In this document: positions 2,881 through 24,960 of the stretch, in pieces
Position numbering within the stretch: position 1 is the first letter of the stretch
Layout of the letters: each line of letters opens with the position of its first letter
Source of the DNA: an uncultured bacterium
GTDB lineage: Bacteria; Acidobacteriota; Blastocatellia; Pyrinomonadales; Pyrinomonadaceae
DNA length: 29,217 nucleotides
Assembly: GCA_965365725.1 (NCBI GenBank)
Contig: CBDUCU010000001.1
Coordinates: 1-29,217, forward strand
Direction: 5' to 3'
Translations under genes and position numbers: made by a program
Notes under the pieces: generated by a model
What the model was told of the DNA's origin: nothing
Database searches by the model: none
Seen by the model: only the letters and a program-made list of their open reading frames with translations

Positions 2881-3348
2881 ATGGAACGTCGTCCCGCATT
2901 TCTCTTTTCAATTATGATTTGCTTGCTTACGTTCGGAGGTTGCACGAACGTCTCTGAGGTGTCGAACGAAGAAGGCAAGCGCAATATCGCCGCCGTGCGC
3001 CAAGTCATTGAGGAGCAGGCTGCCGGATGGAATCGCGGCGACGTGGAAGGCTATATGAACGGCTACGCGCGCGAGGACGCAACCACTTTCGTCTCCGGCG
3101 ACACAATCACGCGCGGCTGGACGACGGTGCTTGAGCGTTACAAAAAATCCTACGACACACGCGACAAGATGGGCGCGCTCGAATTCTCAGAGCTTGAATT
3201 CAAACCTCTCAGCCCCTTCTACATCATGGCGACGGGCCGCTGGAAACTAACGCGCACAGCCGACGCTCCGCACGGGCGCTTTACACTCATCTTCCGGCGC
3301 ACCAACGACGGCTGGCGCATCATCCACGATCACACCTCGTCGGGATAA
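2881..3348 (+). CDS. NTF2/SnoaL-like (DUF4440-type) protein, probable lipoprotein
   Basis: Hydrophobic N-terminus ending FGGC (lipobox-like); [17 protein letters not shown] and GRFTLIFRR...WRIIHDHTS are typical of this family. Confidence 0.75.
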
Positions 3349-3473
3349 AGTCGTGAGTCTGGAGTCGAGAGTCAAAGTAAAGAGGGCGAAAACTTTTGTC
3401 GATGCTGAGAACAAGTCAATGAGCAATGAATCACAAACAATGACTCCAGACTCCAGACTCCAGACTCCAGACT
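3347..3473. repeat. Inverted pair of period-7 arrays: AGTC at 3349/3356/3363/3370 and (GACTCCA)x4+GACT at 3442-3473
   Basis: Read directly. TGAGTCTGGAGTC (3354-3366) is 12/13 complementary to the right array. Confidence 0.85.
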
Positions 3474-4762
3474 TGTTCATTTATAACTGCGCGCAACTCG
3501 TCACGCTTCGCGGCCCGCGCCGTCCGCGTGTGGGGGCGGAGATGCGGGAGCTTTCGATTGTTGAAGACGGAGCGATGTTTGTCAGCGACGGTCTCATCAA
3601 ACGCGTCGGCACGCGCGCGGAGGTTGCGCAGCATGTTGGGCCGCAGGCGGAAGCGTTTGACGCGGGCGGTCGCATTGTTGCGCCGGGTTTTGTTGATGCG
3701 CATGCGCATCCGGTCTTTGCGGGAAATCGTGCGGACGAATTTGAGAGGCGCGCTCTGGGAGCGACCTATCAGGAGATTGCGGCGGCGGGCGGCGGGATTC
3801 GCTCGACCGTCAGACGCACGCGCGCGGCCCTGGAAGATGAACTTGTCGCGGCGGGGAAGAGAAGGGCGGAGTGGTTTCTGCGCACGGGGACGACGACCGT
3901 CGAAGCCAAATCCGGGTACGGGCTGACGACCGAAGACGAGTTGAAGATTCTGCACGCGGTCAAGCGGTTGAATGATGAGACTCCACTAAAATTTGTGCCG
4001 ACCTTTCTCGGCGCGCACGACGTGCCGGAAGAGTTTCGCGCGCGGCGGGAGGATTACGTTCATCTCGTCACGGAAGAGATGCTGCCGCGCGTCGTCGCCG
4101 AAGGACTTGCAGAGTTTTGCGACGTGTTCTGTGAAGAGCGAGTCTTTACGGTTGATGAGACGCGAAAGATTATGACGGCGGCGCGCAGGCAAGGCTTGGG
4201 TTTGCGTCTGCACGCAGACCAACTCACGCTTGGCGGCGGCGCACAGTTGGCTGCGGAGTTGCGTGCAAAGACGGCTGACCATCTTGAGCACACGGATGCG
4301 GCAGGCATCGAAGCCTTAAAACGTGCGGGCGTGCAGCCGATTCTTCTGCCCGGCTCGGTCTATGCACTCGGCTCTGTGCGTTACCCTTCGGCGCGCGCGA
4401 TGATCGACGCGGGGCTTGCCGTCGTCATCGCAACGGATTTCAATCCGGGTTCGTCGCCCACGCCGTCGATGACGATGGCGCTTTCAATCGCTTCGACGCA
4501 GATGAAGATGTCGCCCGCCGAAGCTTTGACGGCAGCCACCGTCAACGCCGCTCACAGCCTTAATCGCGGCCACGAAACGGGAATGCTTGCAGAGCGAATG
4601 CGAGCGGATTTCGTCGTCCACGATTGCGAAGATTACCGCGAGCTTGCCTACTTTTTCGGCATCGAGCACGCGCACGCAACCTTCGTCGGAGGCCGCCTCG
4701 TTTATCTACGCGGAAGCGGCAACGAGGTTAAAGTGAATCCACAAGATAGTGTGCAAAAATAA
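3440..4762 (+). CDS. hutI: Imidazolonepropionase
   Basis: [42 protein letters not shown]. In-frame start options are ATG 3419, ATG 3440 and TTG 3473; the track start at 3353 lies in a repeat. Confidence 0.92.
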
Positions 4763-4765
4763 TTG

Positions 4766-4794
4766 TTGACGCACAATTTGTTGTCGTCTATATT
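4766..4794 (+). promoter_or_regulatory. Sigma70-type promoter TTGACG-N17-TATATT; predicted start site near 4801
   Basis: -35 at 4766-4771 and -10 at 4789-4794 with an exact 17-nt spacer, directly after the hutI stop. Confidence 0.75.
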
Positions 4795-4831
4795 GCGCGC
4801 TAACACTGGAAAGGAGGTGATCCAAAAACGT

Positions 4832-4867
4832 ATGAGTTCTTATCACAGTGAGGTGGCTGAGGCCTGA
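4832..4867 (+). CDS. 11-aa micro-ORF MSSYHSEVAEA
   Basis: ATG 4832 to TGA 4865-4867, preceded by a 16-nt SD-like complement of the 16S tail. Translation is unproven. Confidence 0.45.
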   Translation: MSSYHSEVAEA

Positions 4868-4977
4868 AAAGCTTCGGACGACCGGGTCAGAACATCTGTT
4901 TGCGACTGCTGTCCGAAGCAGCGACCCACTAAAAGAAATTGTGAGCGGTCGGGAAGGCTAATCCCATCAGTTCACCG

Positions 4978-5016
4978 AGAAGGCCCGCTTGAATAAGGCG
5001 GGCCTTCTTCTTTTCT
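4978..5016 (+). terminator. Intrinsic terminator
   Basis: AGAAGGCCCGC (4978-4988) / GCGGGCCTTCT (4998-5008) perfect 11-bp stem, followed by TCTTTTCT. Confidence 0.85.
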
Positions 5017-5042
5017 AATCAACTCCAGTCAACGCGATTAGA

Positions 5043-5103
5043 AACAGCGATGAGCGGCGGGTCAATCAGTGCGCGACCGTCAAATCCGCGTTCATCGCTG
5101 TTC
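5043..5103. repeat. Inverted repeat carrying TCATCG/CGATGA heptamer-family units, 3' of the ECF gene
   Basis: AACAGCGATGA (5043-5053) / TCATCGCTGTT (5093-5103), 11 bp perfect. The unit TCCGCGT-TCATCG also occurs at 20236-20248. Confidence 0.65.
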
Positions 5104-5143
5104 TCGCTTTTTTAGCATCCATCTACGCCAACTGCGCAAAATG

Positions 5144-5758
5144 CTAACGCCGCTTGATTAGTTTGCGCAGCTTGAGACGCGCCTTGTGGAGCTGAGATTT
5201 CGAGGTGCCGACGGCTAAGCCGAGCATCTTTGCGATCTCTTCGTGCTGGTAGCCTTCAACATCGTGAAGGATAAAGATGGTGCGGTAGCCTACCGGCAGT
5301 TCAGCGATGGCCTTGTCTAGTGCGATGCGGTCGACGACAGGCATTCGCGCGGGGTTCTCGGTTCCATCGACGATGCGCGTCGGAGTCTGATCGTCAACGG
5401 CGGTCATTTCGGGCCGCGCGCTCTTTTTACGAAAATGCATCAAGACCTGATTAACGGTCATGCGGTGTAGCCATGTTGTAAACTGTGAATCTCCTCGAAA
5501 AGAGCCGACCTTGCGATAAAGCTGGATAAAGACTTCCTGTGCTAAATCTTCGGCTTCGGCGACGTTTTGCGTCATCCGCAGACAGAGTGAATAGACGCGA
5601 CGGTTATGTCGCTCGTATAACTCTTCAAAAGCACTCATGTCGCCGCAAGCGGCCCTCTGTGTCAGCTCGTAGTCGGTGCATTTTGCAGGTTGCTTGAATG
5701 CTTCTGCGCTTTCAACCGTCGCTGTAGGCCAGATTGTCAAAGCTTCGGTATTGATCAT
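5144..5758 (-). CDS. ECF sigma factor with no adjacent anti-sigma
   Basis: Region 2 ([35 protein letters not shown]) and region 4 ([31 protein letters not shown]). ATG 5758 preferred; 5815 possible. Confidence 0.92.
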
Positions 5759-5939
5759 CTTTGCTTTACGGCCTTTGGGCCGCCCCCTTGTGCTGAAGCG
5801 CGCGAGCGGAGACAAAAGTCATTCTCCTCATCGCGCCTTTTTTGTAACGCCTTCCGTCTTTGTTAGCCGCCAAAAATTGCGACCTGCTTTCTCAACGCTC
5901 GCGCGCCGCATGCCTGTCGCCCCATCCACTATTACTTAC

Positions 5940-5967
5940 AGACACCGGAAGCGACGCGTCGGTTACA
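5940..5967 (-). promoter_or_regulatory. ECF-type promoter TGTAAC-N17-TGTCT facing the orphan ECF gene
   Basis: Minus strand: TGTAAC 5967-5962, 17 nt, TGTCT 5944-5940. Fits the general ECF AAC/(C)GTC pattern. Confidence 0.6.
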
Positions 5968-6009
5968 CACGCACGAAGGCTATTTTTTGTTGAAATAGGG
6001 GCTTGCGTC

Positions 6010-6037
6010 TGTAACGCATCGGTGGCCGTTGGTGTCT
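6010..6037 (+). promoter_or_regulatory. ECF-type promoter TGTAAC-N17-TGTCT facing the spy-sigma-antisigma operon
   Basis: TGTAAC 6010-6015, 17 nt, TGTCT 6033-6037. Boxes and spacing are identical to the divergent copy. Confidence 0.62.
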
Positions 6038-6137
6038 GAGAAGTTAGGAGCTTGAAAGAAGAGACTCTCGCAAGCTTTTTAACAAAGTGGACTCTTCCCC
6101 ACGCAATCAAGGTACACTCGAAGGAGCAAAAGCAAAG

Positions 6138-6689
6138 ATGAAAAGAATCGGGAAGATCAGAAATCTGGCGGTCGCATCAATCGCGGCTGTCGCGTTTGCC
6201 GCACCCGCCGCTTTGGCGCAGACGGGGCAGCACAATCAACAGTCTCCGCATACGGAACAGCACGGCGAGGGCAAAGCTCATCGCGGGCATCGGGGCAAAC
6301 ATCGGCGCGGCTTTGGCAGACACGGCTTTGGTCTGCGCAGCCTTAATTTGACTGACGACCAAAAGACACGCATAAAGCAGATTCGTGAGACCCATCGCGA
6401 GCGCACAAAACCTCTGCGCGAGCAGTTGCGCGCAAAGCGAGCAGAACTTCGTCAGGTCAAACAGGGTGGCACGTTCAACGAGCAGTTGGCCGCGCAGAAG
6501 CTGACGGAGAGCGCAGGACTCAAGGCCAAGCTGATGGGCGAGCGCTTTAGACTCCGGCAGGAGATGCTGGCGGTTCTTACGCCCGAGCAACGCACGCAGC
6601 TTGAACAACAGCGCGAGCAGTTCAAACAAAGACGCGAGCAGTTTAAGATGCGTCGCGGCGAGCGTCGCGGGAGCGGCGCGGCGCTGTAA
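6138..6689 (+). CDS. Spy/CpxP-family (LTXXQ) periplasmic chaperone with His-rich linker
   Basis: Signal peptide (AxA), LNLTDDQ and LTPEQ motifs, AAGGAG at 6121. Confidence 0.85.
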   Translation: MKRIGKIRNLAVASIAAVAFAAPAALAQTGQHNQQSPHTEQHGEGKAHRGHRGKHRRGFGRHGFGLRSLNLTDDQKTRIKQIRETHRERTKPLREQLRAKRAELRQVKQGGTFNEQLAAQKLTESAGLKAKLMGERFRLRQEMLAVLTPEQRTQLEQQREQFKQRREQFKMRRGERRGSGAAL

Positions 6690-6700
6690 ACTTAAACCAT

Positions 6701-6753
6701 GCGCGGCGGCAGACTTCTCTATACGAGACGGTAAGACGAGTCTGCCGCGCGCA
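6701..6753. other. Long imperfect hairpin between spy and the ECF gene
   Basis: GCGCGGCGGCAGACT ... AGTCTGCCGCGCGC, about 14-15 bp with one bulge and no U-tract. Possible mRNA stabiliser or attenuator. Confidence 0.45.
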
Positions 6754-6790
6754 AACATCTGCGGGGTGCGCCGAACTGCGGCAAGAGGAA

Positions 6791-7411
6791 TTGCAAAAAG
6801 CCTCGGATGCGGAGCTGGCGGGCCTTGCGCGCGAGGGCGACGAGTCTGCCTTCGCAGAGATCATGCGTCGCTACGGGCCGCGCGTCTTTCGCACGGCGGG
6901 CCGGTTCTTCCGGCAGCGCGAGCGCGTGGAAGAGGCCGCACAGGAAGTTTTTTTGAAAGCTTTCACTGAGCTTGAATCTTTCGAGGGGCGCGGCTCGCTC
7001 GAAGGCTGGCTGACGCGCATCGCTACCAACACCTGCCTAAACATCGTTCGCAGCGCCAAGCGACGACCGGAGATGACAATCTCGGATTTAACCGAAGACG
7101 AAGGTGCGTGGCTTGAAAATCAGACGGCAAATGCGGCGGCGGAAAAACATAGAGCGGCGGAGCGAAGCGCTGTCGCGGCAGATTTGGCGGGGCGCGTGCT
7201 TGAGACTTTGTCGGCTGACGATAGACTGGTCTTAACTTTAGTCGATGGAGAGGAAACGCCCGTCAAGGAAGTGGCAGAGATGACGGGCTGGTCTGAATCG
7301 AAAGTAAAGGTGCAGGCCTTTCGCGCGCGAAGGCGCATGCGCAAGGCCGTTGAGAAGCTTTTAGGATTGAAAGAAGGATCTGCGCAGACACAAACGCCAG
7401 GCACGGAGTAA
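6791..7411 (+). CDS. ECF sigma factor (SigW/RpoE-like)
   Basis: EEAAQEVFLKAF, SLEGWLTRIATN, region 4 EVAEMTGWSESKVKVQAFRAR. TTG start with AGAGGA upstream. Confidence 0.9.
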   Translation: MQKASDAELAGLAREGDESAFAEIMRRYGPRVFRTAGRFFRQRERVEEAAQEVFLKAFTELESFEGRGSLEGWLTRIATNTCLNIVRSAKRRPEMTISDLTEDEGAWLENQTANAAAEKHRAAERSAVAADLAGRVLETLSADDRLVLTLVDGEETPVKEVAEMTGWSESKVKVQAFRARRRMRKAVEKLLGLKEGSAQTQTPGTE

Positions 7412-7414
7412 GCG

Positions 7415-7918
7415 ATGAAGGGCGAACACATCATCGACATCCTTGAAAGCGACGCGCTCGCAAATTTAAGCGAGCGCGAGCTTGCGCGTGTGCGAGCACA
7501 TGCTGCGAAGTGCAGCGAGTGTCGGCGCGCGTTTGATGCGGCTCGCGTTGCATCGTTACTAATCAAAGAGCGCGCCGCCGAATCACATTTTGCGCCTTCG
7601 CCATTTTTTCAGACGCGCGTGCTGGCCGCGCTCAGAGAGAGACGCGCGAGCGAAGATGCACCCGCGTGGCGCAGGCTCTGGCGCGCTACCGGCGCGCTCG
7701 TCTATTCGATGGCGGCGGTCGTCGTGATGTTGACCGGATTAACACTTGTCGCGCCGCAATCGACAACGGAAATTTCGGATGCGTCCGAACCGTTCTCGAC
7801 CGAAGCCGTTTTGCTCGAACAAGCAGAGCTTTCGGAGGATGACGCGAATTTCGACGATGTCTTCTCAACCGTTTATGAAGCGGGAGACGCGGAGAGTGAG
7901 AATGGACAAGATCGTTAG
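7415..7918 (+). CDS. Membrane-bound ZAS-type anti-sigma factor
   Basis: HxxxCxxC (HAAKCSEC) near the N-terminus, one TM helix, acidic C-terminus; 3 nt after the sigma gene. Confidence 0.82.
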   Translation: MKGEHIIDILESDALANLSERELARVRAHAAKCSECRRAFDAARVASLLIKERAAESHFAPSPFFQTRVLAALRERRASEDAPAWRRLWRATGALVYSMAAVVVMLTGLTLVAPQSTTEISDASEPFSTEAVLLEQAELSEDDANFDDVFSTVYEAGDAESENGQDR

Positions 7919-8315
7919 AAACAAATGGCAGGTGCGCGTCGCCGCGCTCGCGGTCTTTCTGCTCGGATTTACGGCAGGCGCGCTCGCGCTCAATGCATAT
8001 CGTTCATGGGCGAGAGACGACAGTATAGTGCGCGCTCCGCGTCACAAAAACTTTGAGCGGATGCTTGAACGCCTCGATTTGACGAGCGAGCAGGAAGCGC
8101 AGGTTCGACAGATTCTTTCCGACACGCGTAAGCAGGTGCGCGCCATGCACAAAGAGTCTGAACCGCGTTTTGAAGAGGTTCGCCGGCAGACGGACGAGCG
8201 CCTGCGCGCGGTGCTCAATGCCGAACAGTGGGAGCGATTTCAGCAGATGAAAGAAGAGATGCGCGCTCGCAAAGCCGGTAAACGTCGCGGCCCGCCGCCG
8301 GTTGAGGAACGTTAA
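7902..8315 (+). CDS. Spy/CpxP/ZraP-like periplasmic sensor or chaperone
   Basis: N-terminal TM/signal, LDLTSEQ and VLNAEQ motifs; overlaps the anti-sigma stop. Confidence 0.78.
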   Translation: MDKIVRNKWQVRVAALAVFLLGFTAGALALNAYRSWARDDSIVRAPRHKNFERMLERLDLTSEQEAQVRQILSDTRKQVRAMHKESEPRFEEVRRQTDERLRAVLNAEQWERFQQMKEEMRARKAGKRRGPPPVEER

Positions 8316-8344
8316 ATCATCCGCGCCGAGAGATGTCTTTACGC

Positions 8345-8380
8345 GCCCGCGTCGTTAACAGAAAACGACGCGGGTGTTTT
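8345..8380 (+). terminator. Intrinsic terminator of the ECF operon
   Basis: CCCGCGTCGTT / AACGACGCGGG stem followed by TGTTTT. Confidence 0.75.
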
Positions 8381-8440
8381 ATCATGTCGGCATTCTTCTC
8401 CCACAGGCTATCTAACGACACACACAAACGGATGGTTGCC

Positions 8441-10369
8441 ATGAGACATTGCGCAAAAACCTTCGGCTCTTTTCTGGTGCTCTGCTGCGCCTTCGCCTCT
8501 TTGCTTCTGGTTCCGGCCCGCGCGCAATCATTGCCTGATGCGTCGCATCGGGGTCGCACAAACACCGTCGCAGCGGTCGAGGACATACACTCTTACTCCA
8601 ATCCGCAGGACGTTCGCGTCAAACACGTGGATTTGGATTGGACGGTTGACTTCAACCGCAAAACTTTGACGGGAACAGCGACGCTCGATGTCGAGAGAGT
8701 TTCGACGAACGAGCGCGCGCCTCTCATCCTCGATACGCGCGCGCTCAACATCACGCGCGTCGAGGCTTCCAGCAACGGCGCGCGTTTTACGGAGACGCAG
8801 TTTAGCGTCGGCGCGTCGAACGCGGTTTTAGGCGCGCCCCTGACGATTCAGTTGCCGCCGGACGCGCGCCGCGTACGCGTCCATTATTCGACGAGTCCGG
8901 GAGCATCAGGTCTTCAATGGCTTGAACCTGCGCAGACCGCAGGCAAGCGCCATCCGTTTATGTTCACGCAGTCGCAGGCGATTCACGCGCGCAGCTGGAT
9001 ACCTTTGCAGGACACGCCGCAGGTGAGAGTTACCTACGCGGCGCGCGTGCGCACGCCGCCTACGCTCCTCGCCGTGATGAGCGCCGAGAACGAGCCGCGC
9101 GCTGCGCGCGACGGCGACTATTCGTTCAGGATGAAGCAGCCCATTCCGTCGTATTTGATTGCGTTGGCTGTGGGCGATCTGCAATTTCGTCCGATGAGCC
9201 GTCGCACAGGCGTGTATGCCGAGCCGTCGGTCGTTAATAAGGCTGCATGGGAGTTTGCCGACACCGAGCGGATGATCGTTGCGACCGAGCGCATCTACGG
9301 CCCATATCGTTGGGGGCGCTATGACATTCTGGTACTGCCGCCGAGCTTTCCTTACGGCGGCATGGAAAATCCCCGTCTGACGTTTGCCACGCCGACAATT
9401 CTTGCGGGCGACCGCAGCCTCGTCTCTCTGATCGCGCACGAGTTGGCACACTCCTGGTCGGGCAATCTTGTGACCAATGCGACGTGGCGCGACTTTTGGC
9501 TCAACGAAGGGTTTACGACCTATCTTGAGCGGCGCATTGTTGAGGCGGTTTATGGGCGCGCGCGCGCCGAGATGGAGGCCGCGCTTGGGCGACGCGATTT
9601 GGAAGAAGAGATCAAGACGTTTGCAGACCGTGACGAGATTCTTCACGTCGACTTGACTGGACGCGACCCTGACGAGGGATCAACCGATGTGCCTTACGAG
9701 AAGGGCGCGCTCTTTCTTCGTAATCTCGAAGAGACTTTCGGGCGCGCGCGATTCGACGCATTCTTGCGCAGCTATTTCGACAGCCACGCCTTCCGCAGCA
9801 TCACGACCGAAGAGTTCGTCTCTTACTTGAAAGCAAACCTGCTCGATAAGTATCCACGCCTGGCCGCGCGCGTGCCCGTCGAGGAATGGATCGAGCGCGC
9901 GGGGCTTCCTTCGACTGCTCCGCGCCCCTCGTCGCCTGCTTTCTCGCGCGTCGAAGCGCAAGCTCGTCGTTGGTCTGAAGGAAGACTCACGACGGCGCGC
10001 ATCAACGCGGCGCGCTGGTCAACGCAGGAGTGGCTACACTTTCTGCAATCGCTGCCGCAGGATTTAAGCGCGGAAAGAATGGGTGAGCTTGACCGCGCGT
10101 TTCGTCTGACGACGACGGGCAATTCCGAAATCGCTTTCCAGTGGTTGATGATGTCGATTCGCAGCCGCTATCAACCGGCACAGCCGCGACTTGAAGAGTT
10201 TTTGACTTCGGTCGGAAGACGCAAGTTTATCCGCCCGCTCTATCAGGAATTGGCGAAGACGCAGGAAGGGCGCGAACGCGCTCTTTCGATCTACAGGCGA
10301 GCGCGCCCGACCTATCATCCAATCGCGGTGACGACCATTGACGAGATATTGAAATGGAAGGCCGAGTAA
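8441..10369 (+). CDS. Exported M1-family zinc aminopeptidase (leukotriene-A4-hydrolase-like)
   Basis: GGMEN, HELAH-x18-E (WLNEG), YEKG, C-terminal GRRKFIRPLY; signal peptide from ATG 8441. Confidence 0.92.
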   Translation: MRHCAKTFGSFLVLCCAFASLLLVPARAQSLPDASHRGRTNTVAAVEDIHSYSNPQDVRVKHVDLDWTVDFNRKTLTGTATLDVERVSTNERAPLILDTRALNITRVEASSNGARFTETQFSVGASNAVLGAPLTIQLPPDARRVRVHYSTSPGASGLQWLEPAQTAGKRHPFMFTQSQAIHARSWIPLQDTPQVRVTYAARVRTPPTLLAVMSAENEPRAARDGDYSFRMKQPIPSYLIALAVGDLQFRPMSRRTGVYAEPSVVNKAAWEFADTERMIVATERIYGPYRWGRYDILVLPPSFPYGGMENPRLTFATPTILAGDRSLVSLIAHELAHSWSGNLVTNATWRDFWLNEGFTTYLERRIVEAVYGRARAEMEAALGRRDLEEEIKTFADRDEILHVDLTGRDPDEGSTDVPYEKGALFLRNLEETFGRARFDAFLRSYFDSHAFRSITTEEFVSYLKANLLDKYPRLAARVPVEEWIERAGLPSTAPRPSSPAFSRVEAQARRWSEGRLTTARINAARWSTQEWLHFLQSLPQDLSAERMGELDRAFRLTTTGNSEIAFQWLMMSIRSRYQPAQPRLEEFLTSVGRRKFIRPLYQELAKTQEGRERALSIYRRARPTYHPIAVTTIDEILKWKAE

Positions 10370-10459
10370 AAGCGCTCGGTTTGGCAGTGGCGTTTTTGAA
10401 TCCTGAGCGAGAGCATTTTATCAACACAGCGAAAGAGGACAGAGAAACTGCCGACGCAG

Positions 10460-10490
10460 ATTTGAAATGTCAGGTTTGAGATTTCAAATT
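10460..10490. repeat. Period-7 array ATTTGAA-ATGTCAG-GTTTGAG-ATTTCAA, self-complementary
   Basis: Read directly; ATTTGAAAT / ATTTCAAAT arms form a hairpin. Confidence 0.55.
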
Positions 10491-10706
10491 CGCTCCTTTG
10501 TGTTTGTTCTGTTTCCTATATGTGTGTTGCGGTAAAAGCTCTCGCATTTTACTCGACATTGAATAGAGATTGGCGCGCGCGCAAAGCAACCATTGTCGGT
10601 CAAACATTTTAGTGCTAGAGTCTGCGTCCGTTCGATCCTGAATCGATGCTAAAGAGGCGCTCGCGCTCAATCCTCAACGCGCGCGCGAGCCGCAAGCAGC
10701 GCGAAT

Positions 10707-11423: not shown

Positions 11424-11430
11424 ATTCAAT

Positions 11431-11541
11431 TGTCCGTTGTCAGTAGTCTGCTGTCAGTTGTTTATGCGTAGTATCTTGACGCTTTTCAATCAACAGCGTC
11501 GAGTCTGTAAAGCAGAAACAACGGACTACTGACAACGGACA
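11431..11541. repeat. Inverted pair of period-7 arrays between convergent genes
   Basis: GTC at 11432/11439/11446/11453 and GAC at 11524/11531/11538; perfect 18-bp inverted repeat 11431-11448 / 11524-11541. Confidence 0.85.
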
Positions 11542-11545
11542 TTTT

Positions 11546-12535: not shown

Positions 12536-12661
12536 ACACACATCAACCATCCAAAATTGAACCGGCGAGATAAAACCGAAGCGATGAATAGAATTCGAGA
12601 CGACCAACGCGAAATTTTAGTTCTCGAATCAAATCTCTACCCAGCTCTTGCATGTCAGCTT

Positions 12662-12677
12662 GCCGTCAGATTAACGA
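12662..12677 (+). repeat. Left copy of 16-bp direct repeat GCCGTCAG(A/C)TTAACGA
   Basis: 15/16 identical to 14973-14988. Confidence 0.65.
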
Positions 12678-12851: not shown

Positions 12852-12910
12852 CGCCTAGTTCCCCCAAAACTTTCTGCCGTTATTTCTTCGATTCTGTTTC
12901 GTCTAAGTGT

Positions 12911-16978: not shown

Positions 16979-17041
16979 TGGATTTTTCCTCGGTCCTTTT
17001 GCAGACTAAGAAATAATTCAAACATGGAGGGGACAGGATGT

Positions 17042-17128
17042 AAGACAAGCGATCAAGGAGCAACGCTAAACGATGAATGATAAAACAGCTTGTCTTTCAT
17101 CCATCGTTTAGCGTTGCTCCTTCATCGT
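17042..17128. repeat. Inverted pair of ACGATGA-type period-7 arrays between two minus-strand genes
   Basis: Perfect 21-bp inverted repeat 17055-17075 / 17102-17122; units AGGAGCA ACGCTAA ACGATGA ATGATAA. A second inverted pair lies at 17042-17050 / 17088-17096. Confidence 0.85.
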
Positions 17129-17173
17129 TTCTTCTCCTGTGCATCCATGTTGATTCTTCCTCGACGACACGGG

Positions 17174-17806
17174 TTAGAAAGGGCTGCCCTTTGTGCCGAG
17201 CGAGCGTTCGGCAATCTTTGAGAGCGCGACGGCGAGCGCTGCGCCGCCAAGGACTTTGATGAGCATAGGCTGGCGCGCATAGACTTCGCTGACGCGCTCG
17301 ATGATCGAAGGATCATGCTTTTCGGCCTCGGCTGCCGCCTGCTCAACGGCTTCAGGTGAAATCTGCTCGGCCTGTTCGGGTGTAATCTGCGGCAACTGTG
17401 CATGGCCCGCCCCGCTTGCCGCGCCGCCGCCAAAGCCGCCGAGAATCTGATCGAGCGACGAGCCGCCGCCGCTGCCGCCGAAATTACCTCCGGCAGTGTT
17501 GTTGCTGCTGTTGCCACTGCGCGCGAGTATCTGTTGAAGAACTGTCGGGCCGAGCGCGGCAATTAAAGAGTTGAGAATGCCTGCGCGTTGTTGACCCGAA
17601 GACTGCGCGAAGATTTGACCGAGCATGTTTGGGAACGGAGGCGTGCGGTCGTCGCGGAAGGCTGCGGCTAAGCCGTCTGAAACAGCATTGGGCGGCGCGT
17701 TCTGTGCAAACTGGTCGAAGTCGTCCTCGACGGTGTCAGGAGCTTGATCGGGCTGGACGTTGTTGTATTGTTTGAGAAGATCGCTGATTCCGCTTACCCA
17801 ACTCAT
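17174..17806 (-). CDS. Conserved-looking hypothetical helical protein with Gly/Ser-rich insert
   Basis: AAGGAG SD, ATG 17806, C-terminal hydrophobic helix. Loosely YidB/DUF937-like, not certain. Confidence 0.72.
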   Translation of the reverse strand: MSWVSGISDLLKQYNNVQPDQAPDTVEDDFDQFAQNAPPNAVSDGLAAAFRDDRTPPFPNMLGQIFAQSSGQQRAGILNSLIAALGPTVLQQILARSGNSSNNTAGGNFGGSGGGSSLDQILGGFGGGAASGAGHAQLPQITPEQAEQISPEAVEQAAAEAEKHDPSIIERVSEVYARQPMLIKVLGGAALAVALSKIAERSLGTKGSPF

Positions 17807-17938
17807 TTTTGTTTCTCCTTGATGCTGGCAGAAAGGTTAAGAGAGGCGCGCATGCCTGTGTCGGGCGTGCGCGCCAATTTTTTGGGGGCGAAATCAAGGG
17901 GAGTTCGTGTCGCAGCTTAACGCGCGAGGCGCGGTTTG

Positions 17939-18577
17939 TTAAGGACGCGCGGGCGGCTTTGTCTTTGTGTCAACAGACGGCTCTCCGCCAGTAGTGCGCT
18001 CGGAGGGAAGGATGAGCGAAGGGTCTGGACGGTCGGGCGAAGTATGCGTATGTATGATCTTCCAGGCACCGCTGATGCGTTGAAAGACGAGCGTAAGCCG
18101 GCCTGTCGCCGTCTCTTCTGCGTCGCGCACGTTCTGCGTCTGCGTCCACAGACAGGTGATGAGCGCCGAGTCAGGGCTGAGGACGTGGACGCGCACGTCG
18201 CGCACATCGAGCTTTACATCCTTCAAATTTGGATACGAGCTTTCGCGGTTCGTCTTCACCTGCTGCCAGGACTTTGTGACCGTGCCGTTGTTATTAAAGA
18301 GCGTGAGCTGCGGCGAGTTCCAATACGCGCCCATGACGGTCTCAACATCGGCGCGACGGATGCCGTCAACAAGCGTGTCGAAGACTTCGCGTAGGGCGCG
18401 CTCGGTTGGAGAAGTCCGCGAGGCGCTGGGTTTCGGCGGCGGGGCGGGCGCAGCTTGCCCCGGACGTGCGGGCGTGCCCGTGACTGTTTGCACCTCGGAC
18501 GGTTTGGTGTTCTGCGCAAAAGCGACGGGGGCGAGCGTCGCCGCGAGCGCGGAGGCAAAAACTAATCTTTTGAACAT
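17939..18577 (-). CDS. Exported NTF2/SnoaL-like (DUF4440-type) protein, paralog of 2881-3348
   Basis: Signal peptide (AFA), Pro-rich linker, GRLTLVFQRISGAWKIIHTHTS. Confidence 0.78.
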   Translation of the reverse strand: MFKRLVFASALAATLAPVAFAQNTKPSEVQTVTGTPARPGQAAPAPPPKPSASRTSPTERALREVFDTLVDGIRRADVETVMGAYWNSPQLTLFNNNGTVTKSWQQVKTNRESSYPNLKDVKLDVRDVRVHVLSPDSALITCLWTQTQNVRDAEETATGRLTLVFQRISGAWKIIHTHTSPDRPDPSLILPSERTTGGEPSVDTKTKPPARP

Positions 18578-18660
18578 TGCTGTAGATCCCCCTTCAAAAT
18601 GTCGAAGGCGCGAATGAGGAATTTTTCACCCGCGCCGCCTGTAAAGTTGACACTAAATTT

Positions 18661-20160
18661 TTAGACCAGACGCGCGGCCTCGCGCAAGCGGCGCACGCTG
18701 CGCTCGCGGCCCACGACATCGTACACGTCAAACATCGACGGCCCAACCGATTGGCCCGTCAAGGCCGTCCGCGAAGCATTGATAAAGAGTCCGGCCTTGA
18801 CGCCTGCTTCATCTGCAAACGCGCGAAGCGCCGCTTCCACGTTCTCCATCGTCCACGTCTCAACCGTCTCGATGCGTTCGGCGAGCGCGGGCAACAGCTC
18901 TTTCAAGCGCGGCTCTTTTTTCAGATTCTTGGCAACGGCTGCGTCGTCAAACTCGAAATCATCGGCAAAGTATGCACGACCCTGGGCGGAAAAATCCTTG
19001 AGCGTGTAGAAGCGTTGACGGATGAGATCAATCGTTCTTTCAAGCCAAGCGCGCTCACCTCCATCAAACTCGGCGCGCCAAAGTCCGGCGGCTTCAAGCT
19101 CTCTGCGAACAAGCGGCAGAAGCTCTGCAAGAGGCATCATGCGGATGTATTCGGCGTTCATCCAAAGGGCCTTCTGGTCAGTCCATTGTCGCGCGTCGTG
19201 CTCGTTGAAATTGAAGACGGCGTTTGAGCGGTGAATGCCTTCGAGCGAAAACTTTTGCACAAGCTCGTCGAGCGACATGATTTCCGTTCCGTCTTCTGAA
19301 GCCCAACCGAGCAGCGCGAGAAAATTGCGGAAGGCTGCGGCGACAAACCCTCGGTCGCGGTAAGTGGTTAACGAGACGACCTCGCCATGCTTGCGCTTTG
19401 AGAGCTTTGCCTTGTTCGGAGCGAGTATGAGAGGCAGGTGAGCAAATGTTGGAATCTGCGCACCGAGAGCCTCGTAGATGAGAACCTGTTTGTGCGTGTT
19501 CGTCAGATGGTCTTGACCGCGTATGACGTGCGTGATCCGCATCTCGATGTCGTCAACGACGACCGAGAGATTGTAGAGCGGCGACAGATCGCCGGAGCGC
19601 AAGAGCACAAGGTCTTCAATCTCGGAATAATCGCGCTCCTGCGGCCCGTAGACAACGTCTTCAAACTGCGAGCGCCCGTCGCGCGCAACCTTCAGACGCA
19701 CGGCAAACGGCTCGCCCTCTGTGGCGCGCCGGTTCGACTCTTCTGATGGAAGATCGCGAAACGGATTGCTTCTGTGATCTGCGCCCTCGTTTGCGCCGCG
19801 CCGCGCGCGCTCGGCAATCTCCTGCTTGATGCCTGCGTCGGAGCGTTCCTCTTTCGGCGTGAAATCTCTGTAAGCTTTGCCCTCTTCGATGAGTCGCAGC
19901 GCGGCGGCGCGGTGCTTCTCGGCGTTGCGCGATTGAAAGACGATCTCTTCGTCGTAGTCTGCAAAGCCGAGCCACTCGAGCCCTTCGAGAATCGAGCGCG
20001 TTGACTCGTCGGTCGAGCGTTGCAGGTCCGTGTCTTCGACGCGCAGCAAAAACTTGCCTCCCGTCTTGCGTGCATAGAGCCAGTTAAAGAGCGCGGTGCG
20101 CGCACTCCCGATGTGGAGGTAGCCTGTGGGCGATGGTGCGAAACGGACGCGAACGGTCAT
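18661..20160 (-). CDS. gltX: Glutamate--tRNA ligase
   Basis: RVRFAPSPTGYLHIG (HIGH), LLRVEDTD, HVIRGQDH, KLSKR (KMSKS). Start at ATG 20160 (MTVRVRF). Confidence 0.96.
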   Translation of the reverse strand: MTVRVRFAPSPTGYLHIGSARTALFNWLYARKTGGKFLLRVEDTDLQRSTDESTRSILEGLEWLGFADYDEEIVFQSRNAEKHRAAALRLIEEGKAYRDFTPKEERSDAGIKQEIAERARRGANEGADHRSNPFRDLPSEESNRRATEGEPFAVRLKVARDGRSQFEDVVYGPQERDYSEIEDLVLLRSGDLSPLYNLSVVVDDIEMRITHVIRGQDHLTNTHKQVLIYEALGAQIPTFAHLPLILAPNKAKLSKRKHGEVVSLTTYRDRGFVAAAFRNFLALLGWASEDGTEIMSLDELVQKFSLEGIHRSNAVFNFNEHDARQWTDQKALWMNAEYIRMMPLAELLPLVRRELEAAGLWRAEFDGGERAWLERTIDLIRQRFYTLKDFSAQGRAYFADDFEFDDAAVAKNLKKEPRLKELLPALAERIETVETWTMENVEAALRAFADEAGVKAGLFINASRTALTGQSVGPSMFDVYDVVGRERSVRRLREAARLV

Positions 20161-20169
20161 AGTGTTCAA

Positions 20170-20249
20170 ATGATAAACGCGGAACGATGAACGATGAATA
20201 AAAGACAAGCCGCTTTTAATTCATCGTGGCAGCGTTCCGCGTTCATCGT
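20170..20249. repeat. Inverted pair of ACGATGA-type period-7 arrays between tRNA-Ser and gltX
   Basis: ATGATAA ACGCGGA ACGATGA ACGATGA (20170-20197) versus TCATCGT GGCAGCGT TCCGCGT TCATCGT (20221-20249). Confidence 0.8.
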
Positions 20250-20258
20250 TTCAAATTC

Positions 20259-20349
20259 TGGCGGAGATGGCAGGATTCGAACCTGCGATAGGCTTTTGAC
20301 CTATAACGGTTTAGCAAACCGCCGCCTTCAGCCACTCGGCCACATCTCC
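20259..20349 (-). tRNA. tRNA-Ser (anticodon GCT), 91 nt, long variable arm, encoded CCA
   Basis: GGAGATG/CATCTCC acceptor stem, D-loop GAGTGG, anticodon loop TTGCTAA, GGTTCGAATCC T-arm, discriminator G. Confidence 0.97.
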
Positions 20350-21606: not shown

Positions 21607-22458
21607 ATGTCGGAAGTCGATCTGTCGCGGCGAAAATTTATCAAGGGGTTGGCGGCAGCCGGTCTCGTCGGCGCGTCGGCTGCGTCCGCCTACGCCACAC
21701 TCTTCGAGCCTTTCAATTATGAGTTGACCGAAACAGATGTTTTTCTCAGCAATCTGCCCGCAGCATTCGACGGCTTTCGCATCGCACACCTCACGGACGT
21801 GCATCACAGCCGCCTCGTCTCAATCGACGAAGTAAGGCGCGTCGTCGAGATTGCAAAGCGCGCGCGCCCGGATATGGTCGTGCTCACGGGCGATTACACG
21901 ACCGCGCGCCGCAGCTATATCGACCCCTGTGCCGGAGCGCTCGCATCGATTGAAACGCCGCACGGGACATGGGCCGTGCTCGGCAATCACGACCACTACA
22001 ACGACGCGGAGCTGACAACGCGCGCACTCGCGCGGCACGGCATTAACGTCCTCAACAACGCGAACACAAAGATCGCGCGCAGAGGCGACTCGTTGCAGCT
22101 TGCGGGTGTAGACGATTGGGGCTGGGGCGCGTGCGACATTCCGCGCGCGCTAAGCGGACTCGACCCTGCGCGCGCTATCGTCATGCTCTCGCACGAGCCG
22201 CGCGTCTTTGATATGGAAGGGGCGCGTGCGGTTTCACTCATGCTGTGCGGCCACACGCACGGCGGTCAAATCAACTTGCCTTTCATCGGAGCGCCCGCAC
22301 GCTTTCTCGCACGCCAGGAGTTTCGCTACATGCGCGGTCTCTACACACGCGACGACGCGCAGCTCTACGTCTCGCGCGGCACGGGCGTGATCGGCATCCC
22401 CGCGCGCTTCGGCGCACGCCCCGAAATCGCTTTGCTTCGTCTCCGGCAAAAAAAGTGA
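21607..22458 (+). CDS. Tat-signal calcineurin-like metallophosphoesterase (YkuE-like)
   Basis: SRRKFIK twin-arginine motif; DVH, GDY, GNHD, SHEP and GHTHGG metal motifs. Confidence 0.88.
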   Translation: MSEVDLSRRKFIKGLAAAGLVGASAASAYATLFEPFNYELTETDVFLSNLPAAFDGFRIAHLTDVHHSRLVSIDEVRRVVEIAKRARPDMVVLTGDYTTARRSYIDPCAGALASIETPHGTWAVLGNHDHYNDAELTTRALARHGINVLNNANTKIARRGDSLQLAGVDDWGWGACDIPRALSGLDPARAIVMLSHEPRVFDMEGARAVSLMLCGHTHGGQINLPFIGAPARFLARQEFRYMRGLYTRDDAQLYVSRGTGVIGIPARFGARPEIALLRLRQKK

Positions 22459-22459
22459 A

Positions 22460-22554
22460 GAAAGAGAGATGAGTAATAAGTGATGAGAAAAAAGTTGCCT
22501 TTACTCATCTCTCATCACTCGTTACTCATCACTTTTTCTACTTATTACTTATCG
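22460..22554. repeat. Inverted pair of TGATGAG/CTCATCA period-7 arrays between convergent genes
   Basis: AGATGAG TAATAAG TGATGAG AAAAAAG (22467-22494) versus CTCATCT CTCATCA CTCGTTA CTCATCA (22504-22531), then CTTATTA CTTATCG. Confidence 0.8.
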
Positions 22555-22944
22555 TTAAGAAAGACTTGTCGGGCGCGGGGCGCTCATCAATCGAACGGGA
22601 GGCTGCGGCGCGCAGCAGACGCGTTCGAGTCGCGCGCGGTCGCGCTGCATCTCACGGTCTTCAGCAAGCCAACGCATCACTTCTTCAAACACTTTTGCGG
22701 CGTGCGGATTCTCGTGCGCGATGACGCGATAATGCATCCACTTGCCTTCACGCCGCGCGCCGACCACACCGGCGCGGCGCAGGTATGCAAGATGGCGCGA
22801 AATCTTCGGCTGACTCTCGCCCAAGACCTCGACAAAAAAGCAGACGCAGACCTCGTCGCGCCCCATCATGTTCAAAAGTCGCAGCCGCGTGCGGTCTGCA
22901 AGCGCCTTAAAGAGCAGTTCCATCTGTTTATGTTTGGCTGACAT
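22555..22944 (-). CDS. arsR: ArsR/SmtB-family repressor, probably As(III)-sensing
   Basis: FKALADRTRLRLL, EVCVC, SQPKISRHLAYLRRAG, REGKWMHY and a C-terminal CC; divergent from arsM. Confidence 0.88.
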   Translation of the reverse strand: MSAKHKQMELLFKALADRTRLRLLNMMGRDEVCVCFFVEVLGESQPKISRHLAYLRRAGVVGARREGKWMHYRVIAHENPHAAKVFEEVMRWLAEDREMQRDRARLERVCCAPQPPVRLMSAPRPTSLS

Positions 22945-22999
22945 GAGATAGCCTCGCTGTGAATTTGCTGCGCGCGTCGGATGCACTAATAAATACGTC

Positions 23000-23029
23000 T
23001 TGACATATATGTTTTTCGGGTGCTATCGT
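23000..23029 (+). promoter_or_regulatory. arsM promoter TTGACA ... TGC-TATCGT (extended -10)
   Basis: TTGACA 23000-23005, TG 23021-23022, TATCGT 23024-23029. Confidence 0.65.
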
Positions 23030-23034
23030 GCCGA

Positions 23035-23056
23035 CATATTCGCATAGGCGAATGTG
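23035..23056. promoter_or_regulatory. Putative ArsR operator CATATTCGC-ATAG-GCGAATGTG
   Basis: 9-4-9 inverted repeat with one mismatch, overlapping the predicted transcription start. Confidence 0.65.
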
Positions 23057-23154
23057 ATTGTAGGCAGGATGAAGTGAGAAGACAAGCCTGCTGCGACGTT
23101 TGAAAGAATTTTTGAGGGTCGGCCAATGTTCGGCCCGGAAAGAGAGAGTTGGCG

Positions 23155-24108
23155 ATGTCTGAAGCGATTATCGATGCGGTGCGTTCGAGATATGGTGCGG
23201 TCGCGCAAGGAGGACTTTCGAGCGAGCAGGAGGGCGTGCGCGCGGTGGCCGAAGCCTTTGGCTACACGGCGGAAGAGCTGGCCTCGATCCCGGCGGAAGC
23301 GAACATGGGGCTTTCATGCGGCAACCCAACCGCGACGGCTCACTTGCGCGAGGGCGAGACTGTTGTTGATTTGGGTTCGGGCGGCGGTCTCGACGTTTTT
23401 CTTGCGGCACAGAAGGTTGGGCCGACGGGTCGGGCCGTCGGCATCGATATGACAACCGAGATGATCGAGCTTGCGCGCCGCAACGCCGCCAAGTTGCCCG
23501 GCAGTGCGCCCGCCAACGTCGAATTTTATCAGGCCACTATCGACCGTCTGCCGCTGGCAGACAATTCGGTCGATTGCATCATCAGCAACTGCGTCATCAA
23601 TCTTGCGCCCGACAAGCCTGCGGTCTTCCGCGAGATTGCGCGCGTGCTCAAGCCGGGCGGACGTTTGGCCGTCAGTGATATTGCGCTCAAGCGTGAGCTT
23701 CCTCCGGAAATCGGAAACGACTTGATGGCCTACGTCGGCTGCATTGCTGGCGCAATCTCGCTCGACGAATACCGGAGCGGACTCTCGGAAGCGGGCTTTA
23801 GCAATATCGCCATCATCGACGCAAATGCTGATCTAAACGCATATGCACAGGTCGAAGGGCAGTCGGGCTGTTGCTCTCCGGCGATGGATGAAAGCCGCGC
23901 TGAATCGAAATCGCTCCCCGTCAATATGTCTGAATGTTGTGCGCCCGCGTCGAGCACAGAAGCTTCCGCTACATCATGCTGCACACCTGCAACGGTTGAA
24001 AGCGCGCCGGAAGAAAAACTTCACAGCGCGTTGAGCGAACTGCTCTCGCGCTATAACGTTAACGACTACGCAGCGAGCGTCAAGGTCTTCGCCGTCAAGC
24101 CGAATTGA
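23155..24108 (+). CDS. arsM: Arsenite S-adenosylmethionine methyltransferase
   Basis: [17 protein letters not shown] motif, ISNCVINL and YVGCIAGA (the usual ArsM cysteines); CC-rich insert near the C-terminus; divergent arsR. Confidence 0.88.
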
Positions 24109-24168
24109 GTTTGATGAATAGATTTACGCGGCGAAAAACAAGGGCGAGCATCAGTACTTTTTGATTAA

Positions 24169-24213
24169 GCAAAACGGGTCGTGAGTTTGAGTAAAACTCA
24201 CGACCCGTTTTGC
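24169..24213. terminator. Bidirectional terminator-like hairpin between arsM and the spy paralog
   Basis: Perfect 20-bp stem 24169-24188 / 24194-24213, 5-nt loop, with AAAA/TTTT ends. Confidence 0.82.
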
Positions 24214-24234
24214 ATTCACTTTTTTGACAAGTTC

Positions 24235-24762
24235 TTACATCGTCTCGCCGCGCGTTATCTTGCGCTGTTGGCGAAACTGCTCGCGTCTCTCTCTACGCTC
24301 TTTTTTCAACTGTTCGAGCTGCGCGCGCTGCTCGTTGGTCAAAGTGGCAAGCAGTTCCTGACGTTGCGCCTTGCGTCTTTCGCGCAAAGTTTGCATAAGC
24401 GTGCGCGCACGCGCTTGCTGGTCGGCGTTGAGCTGGCCGCCTTCGCGTCTGAGCCTCATCAACTCTCGCAACTCTGTGCGCGCGGCTTTGTTCGACTCGC
24501 GGAAACGCTGCGAGAGCGTGCGCACCTGCTCGCGTTGCGCATCCGTCAGGTTAAGACTCTTGAGCGCGCGCAACCCTGCGCGTCTGTGGTGTCGGCGCAT
24601 CGCTCGTTTGTGTCGTCTGCCCATGCGTCGCTCGCCGCGCGCTTCCGGCCCAACTTGCGGCGCTCCCTGTTGCTGCGGAGCTACGCTTTGCGCAAGCCCC
24701 ACAATCGACAGACCGGCAATCATCCCGGCGGCCAACACAATCTTCGTAAAAGTGCCCTTCAT
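24235..24762 (-). CDS. Spy/CpxP-family (LTXXQ) periplasmic chaperone, paralog of 6138-6689
   Basis: Signal peptide, LNLTDAQ and LTNEQ motifs, GGAG SD; ATG 24762. Confidence 0.85.
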   Translation of the reverse strand: MKGTFTKIVLAAGMIAGLSIVGLAQSVAPQQQGAPQVGPEARGERRMGRRHKRAMRRHHRRAGLRALKSLNLTDAQREQVRTLSQRFRESNKAARTELRELMRLRREGGQLNADQQARARTLMQTLRERRKAQRQELLATLTNEQRAQLEQLKKERRERREQFRQQRKITRGETM

Positions 24763-24896
24763 AAATTTAGCTCCTATCGTGATTGAAACGTTTTGAATTT
24801 CTGCGCCCCGCGTTTGCACGTCTCGCCGGACGGCTTTCTGAACCTTTTAGACGCGCGCGACGTTCTTTTGGTCGAGAAAAGATTCTCGGCGGAAGG

Positions 24897-24960
24897 AAAT
24901 CAGGAGACAGGAGTCAGAAGAGGAGAGAACAGTCAGACGCTTTATTCTGACTTCTGCCTT
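24897..24960. repeat. Short inverted period-7 arrays (GAGTCAG / TTCTGAC)
   Basis: AAATCAG GAGACAG GAGTCAG (24897-24917) versus TTCTGAC TTCTGCC (24945-24958). Confidence 0.55.

Follow-up and report, generated by a model that had tools for sequence, protein, structure and literature searches.

The stretch of DNA analysed here, 29,217 nucleotides from an uncultured bacterium of the Pyrinomonadaceae (Acidobacteriota; hereafter the window), carries a set of hairpins whose arms consist of tandem heptamers, and such hairpins are real and highly non-random throughout the genome to which it belongs. The Pyrinomonadaceae are abundant in soil. The window is the entire contig C1 of a draft genome of 767 contigs (4.36 Mb, GC content 0.568, 88% complete, 3% contaminated), and the nearest public gltX genes, at 72–83% amino-acid identity, are all found in metagenome-assembled genomes labelled Pyrinomonadaceae or Acidobacteriota subdivision 4, which identifies the organism as a soil member of the class Blastocatellia. 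On balance we think it probable that the hairpins are dispersed foldback repeat elements of the kind represented by short tandemly repeated repetitive (STRR) sequences and intervening sequences (IVS), palindromic at the DNA level, tolerated by folding out of tight operon junctions and predicted to be RNase III substrates in RNA. A preliminary description of the window had proposed a system resembling STRR and repetitive extragenic palindromic (REP) sequences; this was right in kind and wrong on the locus specificity of the sequences, on a role as terminators and on a partner gene of the REP-associated tyrosine transposase (RAYT) type.

Heptamer hairpins in the genome and in the window

An inverted-repeat scan of the whole genome (seed 8, arms of at least 14 nt, complementarity at least 85%, loop up to 120 nt) returned 1430 raw hits compared to 167 in a control genome obtained by block-wise dinucleotide shuffling, and about 800 compared to 19 when arms of at least 18 nt were required. 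After merging, 703 loci with arms of at least 16 nt remained, against 57 in the shuffled sequence. Identity within the pooled arms reached 0.58 at lag 7 and 0.59 at lag 14, with all other lags at 0.23–0.29 and shuffled arms at 0.28–0.31. A lag-7 identity of at least 0.6 was found at 318 loci compared to about one per shuffled genome, and 80% of the arms of 30–40 nt pass this cut-off. The lag-7 excess that the preliminary description expected of intergenic as opposed to coding DNA was present when checked: the whole 517 kb of intergenic DNA gave 0.281 at lag 7 and 0.274 at lag 14 (neighbouring lags about 0.25, shuffled 0.252), while coding DNA displayed period 3 only. Tandem Repeats Finder also detected the period-7 arrays, and inverted pairing proved to be enriched genome-wide, since an inverted partner lay no more than 250 nt away from 132 of 147 stringent tandem heptamer arrays, compared to 27 of 147 in the control. 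The numbers of inverted-repeat loci, of periodic loci and of paired arrays therefore exclude chance as a genome-wide explanation. An arm is composed of 3–5 tandem heptamers and typically measures 20–38 nt, the loop 3–80 nt and the whole element about 83 nt. We also considered heptamer arrays at contig ends as a cause of the fragmented assembly and rejected this, as they are not enriched there (0.3% vs 0.5%).

The loci in the window are the following (z-scores of the folds are relative to dinucleotide shuffles):

3349-3474: heptamer hairpin; 5′ arm with three GAGTCNN units, 3′ arm with 4.6 perfect GACTCCA units, loop of about 66 nt; z −3.3
5043-5103: degenerate hairpin of the AACGATG/AACGCGG family, 3′ of an extracytoplasmic function (ECF) sigma-factor gene (5144-5758, minus strand); lag-7 identity 0.55
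11428-11544: CCGTTGT/CAGTAGT hairpin; perfect outer stem of 18 bp, loop of about 75 nt containing an inner stem; z −8.3
17047-17130: AACGATG/AACGCTA hairpin; loop of 16 nt; z −10.0
20165-20254: AACGATG/AACGCGG hairpin between the tRNA-Ser gene (20259-20349, minus strand) and the start of gltX (20160, minus strand); z −7.2
22459-22553: AGTGATG/AATGAGT hairpin, of the commonest family in the genome; z −5.0
24897-24960: weak member; direct run of CAGGAGN/CAGAAGA-like heptamers with a complement of about 12 nt downstream, located upstream of a gene starting at 24977
10461-10489: plain stem, not a member; 9 bp (ATTTGAAAT / ATTTCAAAT), loop of 11 nt, without period 7; z −4.1

Of the period-7 inverted pairs initially reported at seven loci, five thus stand as strong hairpins, with lag-7 identities of 0.57–0.96 in their arms, while the pair at 24897-24960 is weak and that at 10460-10490 does not belong to the group. 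The related stem at 5043-5103 is indeed a period-7 hairpin, though degenerate; it represents a weaker AACGATG/AACGCGG copy (fold 5038-5108, z −2.7). The weak locus (fold 24893-24965) has a z-score of −1.7, with 14 of 200 shuffles folding equally well, and a lag-7 identity of 0.57; it is probably a decayed member of the hairpin family.

In the strong hairpins the arms pair at 18 of 20 positions (3355-3374 with 3441-3460), 18 of 18 (11431-11448 with 11524-11541), 29 of 31 (17050-17080 with 17097-17127), 17 of 19 (20168-20186 with 20233-20251) and 26 of 30 (22459-22488 with 22510-22539). All are placed between genes. The hairpin at 22459-22553 occupies the whole of a 96-nt convergent spacer (genes 21607-22458, plus, and 22555-22986, minus), and the one at 11428-11544 is likewise flanked by convergent genes (10707-11423, plus, and 11546-12379, minus). 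Two minus-strand genes, 15125-16942 and 17174-17806, lie on either side of that at 17047-17130. The first hairpin, with lag-7 identities of 0.77 and 0.96 in its two arms, fills the spacer from a DUF4440 gene (stop at 3348) to an amidohydrolase gene whose start was called at 3473. The longest open reading frame (ORF) of the amidohydrolase gene begins with a GTG at 3353 and runs through the hairpin, so that the GACTCCA array would be translated; coding statistics place the start at about 3473. Gene callers that push start codons into the arms in this manner are likely to over-extend the N-termini, and annotation pipelines should mask the elements.

Unit families, gene spacers and orthologous loci

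About seven families accommodate most of the consensus units of the 318 periodic loci. AGTGATG/AATGAGT and AGCTGTT/AGCTATT/AGCTTTT comprise about 55–60 loci each, AAAAGGC/AAAAAGG/AAAAGGT and AATCGTG/AAATCGT about 40 each and CCGTTGT/AGTTGTC about 27, with AAGTCAG and AACGATG/AACGCGG being smaller; the CCGTTGT/CAGTAGT family of the hairpin at 11428-11544 has at least 18 members. The window hairpins are a sample of one or two loci per family, and the locus-specific sequence attributed to them at first is true of this sample only, given that the families recur at dozens of loci each. Members of a family have the arm sequence in common while their loops differ and their flanks are unrelated: in only 3% of the between-element alignments does the match continue beyond the element by more than 15 nt. 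One order of variant units, for example AAGGCAA-AAGTAAA-AAGGTAA-AAGGCAA, is even preserved in dozens of copies. Defined ends, differing loops and unrelated flanks argue for dispersed repeat families and against arrays grown independently at each site. Slippage plus template switching, the generator initially proposed, is therefore not the whole story, since purely local generation cannot account for dispersed copies with the same unit order. Direct repeats of 3–6 nt at the flanks, as expected from target-site duplication, did not occur more often than with shuffled partners. An arm matches its partner in the same element at 0.92–0.97 and the arms of other elements of the family at 0.82–0.92; arms do match their own partner better, as had been noted, but within a family by only 3–10 points.

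Strongly periodic hairpins are non-coding in 93% of cases. They are present in 236 of 2418 gaps between co-directional genes, in 29 of 377 convergent and in 13 of 404 divergent ones; when gaps shorter than 60 nt are disregarded, the shares are 14%, 11% and 3%, respectively, which means that about one in seven co-directional spacers of this size, core operons included, holds such a hairpin. The preliminary description had the elements just after stop codons or between convergent genes. The former is borne out, while a mostly convergent location is not. The system is thus STRR-like in its heptamers, arranged as palindromes, and REP-like in its distribution, being found downstream of genes and rarely between divergent ones. 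According to our gene calls, hairpins in co-directional gaps start a median of 5 nt after the stop codon, overlapping it in a quarter of cases, and end a median of 18.5 nt before the next start. The spacer remaining after subtraction of the hairpin has a median length of 26.5 nt compared to 88 nt for hairpin-free gaps, and because it is so much shorter the junctions concerned appear tight and operon-like. In the S10 ribosomal-protein cluster on contig C354 three consecutive spacers, located around the L2 and S19 genes as assigned by size and order, contain hairpins of three different families, and spacers on the nuo contigs have hairpins too. Retention of a Shine–Dalgarno sequence 3′ of the hairpins was an uninformative test, these motifs being scarce in the whole genome (23% vs 35%).

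On either strand the 5′ arm is poor in C (A 0.33, C 0.13, G 0.28, T 0.27) and the 3′ arm poor in G. Because of this composition the 5′ arm is rich in stop codons, and 38% of the 5′ arms contain stops in all three frames compared to 4% of composition-matched shuffles. We regard this richness as a by-product of the composition together with a period not divisible by three; it may explain why copies touching gene ends are tolerated.

The spacer between tRNA-Ser and gltX (20165-20254 in the window) could be followed across related species. Eighty gltX loci, 617 kb in all, contained 195 inverted-repeat loci with a lag-7 identity of 0.589, and a tandem-heptamer hairpin is found in the tRNA-Ser/gltX spacer of about 70 of 78 species. 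These hairpins belong to at least four classes: AACGATG/AACGCGG, as in the window, AGTAGTC/AGTGGTC, AGAGGTC and ACGAGTG/AAGTGAC. On the gltX tree the classes are patchy, well-supported sister species having unrelated classes and each class recurring in distant clades, and on these grounds we rejected a gradual drift of the units in situ. In close relatives the whole spacer, from a few bases past the tRNA to the start codon, is exchanged between nearly identical flanks, which could reflect re-occupation by another element or allelic replacement via the conserved flanks. Beyond the family the design is rare: about 370 kb from 19 other genomes of Acidobacteriota contained three clear cases. A comparison with a genome of the same genus (G055) in search of empty sites was abandoned, as the two are too divergent, with 70–80% DNA identity and rearrangements at the relevant spacers.

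Within the AGTAGTC class, hairpin identity is 0.83 compared to 0.68 at four-fold sites of gltX, and in its 14 orthologues 11 of 34 base pairs remain paired through changes on both sides. At one locus AGTAGTC has become AGTGGTC throughout both arms, in every unit. Some concerted evolution of a locus, suspected earlier, thus does occur; the local arm-to-arm homogenisation invoked in the preliminary description is supported to this extent, but not by the small advantage of arm-to-arm matching. Selection for pairing of the sense strand would leave mostly G:U mismatches. Of these, 238 oriented hairpins contained 99, compared to 127 of the A:C type, and the two types were about equal among the 14 orthologues. 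With no G:U excess, the wobble signature of maintenance at the RNA level was discarded, and the symmetric design points to maintenance at the DNA level.

The PF05635 link and the possible origin of the hairpins

'S23p', the protein of the 23S rRNA intervening sequences, belongs to the family PF05635 and is a four-helix bundle of the Avd-like type. This genome has a single PF05635 gene (C85:7938-8249, minus strand, 80 bits), which sits in the 377-nt loop of an element (C85:7876-8312) with AAAAGGC-family arms of 30 nt, 29 of which are paired, and this element exactly fills the spacer between two minus-strand genes. PF05635 was detected in 54 of 61 genomes of the family, in up to 22 copies, and among 14 control genomes in Bacteroides only (the genome tallies take in the unpublished genomes G017 and G032). 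When the best copy per genome was inspected in 30 genomes, 27 were enclosed by tandem-repeat arms; one of these (L108) comes from the unpublished G017, without which the count is 26 of 29. The arms are built from many different units, mostly of period 7 and a few of period 8–9, so that the period is not strictly seven in the gene-bearing form. At two loci of relatives (L102 in G030 and L113 in G023) the enclosing arms have 8–9-nt units such as AGTCTGGCG and arms of 68 nt. Wherever both neighbours were co-directional (24 cases) the PF05635 gene was oriented in the sense direction. The seven family genomes devoid of PF05635 contained 3 heptamer hairpins in 346 kb, as opposed to 53 in 675 kb of the positive genomes. 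Hairpins of this genome with long loops were examined as decayed PF05635 carriers and dismissed: apart from the C85 element, the long-range pairs are mostly neighbouring elements of the same family. A cross-phylum protein search returned close Pyrinomonadaceae relatives for all of its best 120 matches and so offered no wider view. The closest solved homologue of the proteins found here is XCC0516 of Xanthomonas campestris (PDB 2gsc, E 4.5e-34), and in the table of Rehm et al. one GGGAATC array abuts precisely this gene.

For decades heptamer repeats have been known from cyanobacteria and Xanthomonas but not explained, and the present case is a version with many families that is almost always paired. 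We found no description of such elements in the literature on Acidobacteriota, Pyrinomonadaceae included, in agreement with the preliminary description, which knew of none in this lineage. In filamentous cyanobacteria STRR hairpins occur between hupS and hupL, where a role in stability or translational coupling has been proposed (PMC2670836). They resemble the elements described here in having tandem 7-nt units, in their intergenic or intercistronic location, in the ability to fold as a hairpin and in the presence of several unit families per genome. They differ in belonging to the cyanobacterial phylum and in that 90% of the arrays here are inverted pairs; the Nostoc GGGGAYT repeats, for instance, are rarely paired (PMC4692102). 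The classical STRR units CCCCAGT, TTGGTCA and CAACAGT yielded no exact 18-nt array in this genome. X. campestris and X. axonopodis possess 70 and 75 convergent (GGGAATC)n pairs per genome, respectively (Rehm et al. 2015, PMC4692102). These are mostly intergenic, more often convergent than divergent, and the repeat type is kept between species while the length varies (PMC4692102). Again two heptamer arrays lie close together on opposite strands; however, Xanthomonas employs a single G-rich, quadruplex-forming unit, whereas many units, a higher density and almost obligatory pairing are seen here, and none of the arms (0%) has three or more GGG or CCC runs. The TAACTGA repeats of marine Beggiatoaceae, Cyanobacteria and Bacteroidetes are found upstream of start codons, sometimes overlapping stop codons, and their forward arrays contain stops in all three frames (MacGregor 2015). 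The position just before starts and the three-frame stops are thus shared, although in Beggiatoaceae the arrays are almost all direct (169 direct sets vs 1 indirect) and made of a single unit.

The IVS of 23S rRNA in Coxiella, Leptospira and others shares the design of the long form, in which a long terminal stem surrounds a PF05635 ORF. That of Coxiella has a terminal stem of 28 bp, is excised by RNase III, carries the S23p ORF and contains two to three GACAGAT units, varying between strains; it is regarded as selfish (PMC4990558). Such sequences sit within 23S rRNA (helix 25 or 45), whereas the elements described here lie between protein genes or beside a tRNA gene, and most copies are without an ORF. 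The 23S gene of the present genome falls outside the assembly; in three related complete genomes (G001, G008 and G049) the genes measure 2883–2950 nt, a normal length, and those three therefore have no IVS. REP sequences and their compound forms (bacterial interspersed mosaic elements, BIMEs, and REP doublets forming hairpins, REPINs) likewise consist of short palindromes outside genes that number in the hundreds, lie downstream of genes, seldom occupy divergent spacers and show no target-site duplication. What sets the present elements apart is the internal period of 7, the many families and the lack of both a GTAG/CGTC tag and an association with RAYT genes.

Taken together, we propose that each hairpin is a copy from one of several families of small palindromic repeats that fold back on themselves, the short ones being the gene-less form of a design whose long form carries PF05635 in its loop. 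They would spread by dispersal of family copies, while slippage and arm-to-arm correction within a locus would keep the palindromes intact. Survival would be confined almost entirely to transcribed spacers, just past stop codons and ahead of the start region of the next gene, where an insert may be tolerated because it folds back and the effective spacer would stay short. We infer that the elements are mobile and that some agent spreads them. In the mRNA, near-perfect duplexes of 20–35 bp would be expected, which should serve as substrates of RNase III and not as intrinsic terminators; this genome has an RNase III gene, and processing of the hairpin transcripts by the enzyme is predicted.

Could the hairpins instead be kept by the host? 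This is the main rival, and to our mind a rather doubtful one: they would be intercistronic RNA elements selected for mRNA structure, acting as RNase III sites, as stems protecting 3′ ends or as devices coupling a stop codon to the next start, and their repeat nature would be incidental. It would readily explain why they begin right past stop codons in operon-like junctions, why about 70 of 78 species have one at tRNA-Ser/gltX, why pairs are preserved by changes on both sides with an identity at or above that of synonymous sites, and why PF05635 genes are always sense-oriented; stability and coupling roles have, after all, been put forward for STRR hairpins (PMC2670836). It fits poorly with a design that is symmetric on both strands and lacks the G:U excess in the sense strand, and with the spread of the same few families over hundreds of unrelated junctions. 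Moreover, family genomes negative for PF05635 have almost no hairpins, which are therefore dispensable. That every array arises on the spot, through slippage during replication together with template switching and without any dispersal, we consider improbable. Units and both arms indeed change together at one orthologous locus, 90% of the arrays are paired, and 7 nt has been proposed as a length favouring polymerase slippage (Mrazek et al., as cited in PMC4679880). Nevertheless, identical higher-order arrangements are seen at dozens of loci that are unlinked and have unrelated flanks, families are shared among species, and matching between the arms of one element is only slightly above that between elements. 

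A terminator function, as the preliminary description had suggested, is unlikely, and that the hairpins are simply unusual Rho-independent terminators with long AT-rich stems deserves very little credence. They do lie downstream of genes, 29 of them between convergent ones, and some have A-rich 5′ and T-rich 3′ flanks. However, the mean GC content of the arms is 0.48 compared to 0.57 for the genome, unlike the GC-rich stem of an intrinsic terminator; only 11% of the hairpins are followed by at least six T within 10 nt, leaving 89% without a T-tail, and the lack of T-tails plus the presence of hairpins in three consecutive spacers of the S10 operon, with more in the nuo clusters, leads us to conclude that they are not terminators. 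The residual spacers are operon-like, and the enrichment in convergent gaps belongs to inverted repeats without period 7 (106 of 377 gaps). Canonical terminators with a GC-rich stem and a T-tail, of a different design, coexist in the window (4977-5009 and 17845-17875), and a terminator scan of its positions 1-20000 picked up none of the heptamer hairpins. Mobilisation by a known transposase, either as REP/REPIN elements moved by a RAYT (a Y1 HUH transposase) or as MITEs (miniature inverted-repeat transposable elements) moved by a DDE transposase, seems just as remote. In its favour, the hairpins are abundant small palindromes that lie outside genes and seldom between divergent ones, they leave no target-site duplication, as is the case for HUH elements, and Y1_Tnp genes are present in the genome. 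The absence of target-site duplication counts against the DDE type, however, and many unrelated unit families stand in place of one cognate repeat. The GTAG/CGTC tag is no commoner near the outer than near the inner ends (11% each). A RAYT/TnpA-REP gene linked to the arrays, as had been anticipated, was not encountered: this genome, which is 88% complete, gave two Y1_Tnp hits, and heptamer hairpins flank neither. The IS200/RAYT-like gene at C498:1404-1871 (155 aa) has three copies of a non-heptamer repeat of its own on its flanks, and the weaker hit on C416 adjoins a GC-rich palindrome. The C498 repeat (C498:1375-2100), a hairpin-forming sequence of about 22 nt with the core GCTCC-GTTA-GGAGC, is found nowhere else in the assembly and makes up a separate, conventional transposase-plus-repeat unit. 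A reverse transcriptase acting as a telomerase-like generator was also considered and set aside, as the 88%-complete genome gave no RVT_1 match.

Several observations weigh against dispersed foldback elements with a PF05635-bearing long form. We did not catch any element being inserted or excised. At the tRNA-Ser/gltX site, where close relatives differ in the whole spacer, allelic replacement by homologous recombination through the conserved flanks would explain the exchange as well as mobility would. The high conservation of the AGTAGTC hairpins relative to four-fold sites, together with a position kept in most species, is more easily reconciled with a host function than with a purely selfish nature. 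Copy number of PF05635 and hairpin density show no dose-response (Spearman 0.02), only presence and absence being different, and the seven negative genomes are not phylogenetically independent. A four-helix bundle of 120 aa is no obvious mobilising enzyme, and the C85 gene has an in-frame TGA near its start, early in the part covered by the family model. With an ATG five codons past this TGA as the start, an ORF of about 105 aa is left, and the copy may be decaying, as reported for the S23p ORF of Coxiella. In addition, the gene calls and distances to starts are approximate, stemming from our own simple codon-usage caller. A search of sequencing runs retrieved no run with a 9.9-kb stretch and only two DNA runs with gltX, at 5% of words each, and listed no RNA run for this organism.

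A further-reaching version, which we put forward very tentatively and would not ourselves expect to hold, is that heptamer hairpins and the small PF05635 protein, whose Avd-like bundle is pentameric, constitute one widespread, undescribed mobile or self-maintaining element, with the gene-bearing form autonomous and the short ones non-autonomous, and that STRR hairpins, the GGGAATC pairs and the 23S IVS are the same system in other phyla. If true, the function of PF05635 would be to recognise or propagate 7-nt-periodic hairpins, and the dominance of heptamers among the long simple-sequence repeats of bacteria would be explained. The enclosure of PF05635 genes provides a concrete candidate partner for heptamer repeats and suggests an origin for the intervening sequences of ribosomal RNA.

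Other features of the window

The gene map of the window (Pfam and our own caller) is ordinary, with UvrD, hydrolases, ECF sigma and anti-sigma factors, an M1 peptidase, a PAS histidine kinase, a PQQ beta-propeller protein, tRNA-Ser, gltX and others. At the gathering thresholds of Rfam, the tRNA alone was matched across the window, and the hairpins had no match. A candidate small RNA lies at 4766-5010 (plus strand), where a promoter-like site (TTGACG, 17 nt, TATATT; 10 of 12 matches) precedes about 200 nt of structured non-coding sequence ending with the canonical GC-stem plus T-tail terminator at 4977-5009; its Rfam similarities are sub-threshold only (CC2171, 25.8 bits vs a gathering score of 75).

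The plain stem at 10461-10489 is part of a stretch (10448-10490) in the 338-nt gap following the M1 peptidase gene. This stretch is 86% identical to one on an unrelated contig of the same-genus genome (G055:C628:185-228), although the intergenic DNA on either side of it shows no conservation. The hairpin at 24169-24213, a perfect 20-bp palindrome with a 5-nt loop and without period 7, is of another kind than the heptamer ones; it is located about 60 nt past the stop codon of a methyltransferase gene (23155-24108, plus strand).

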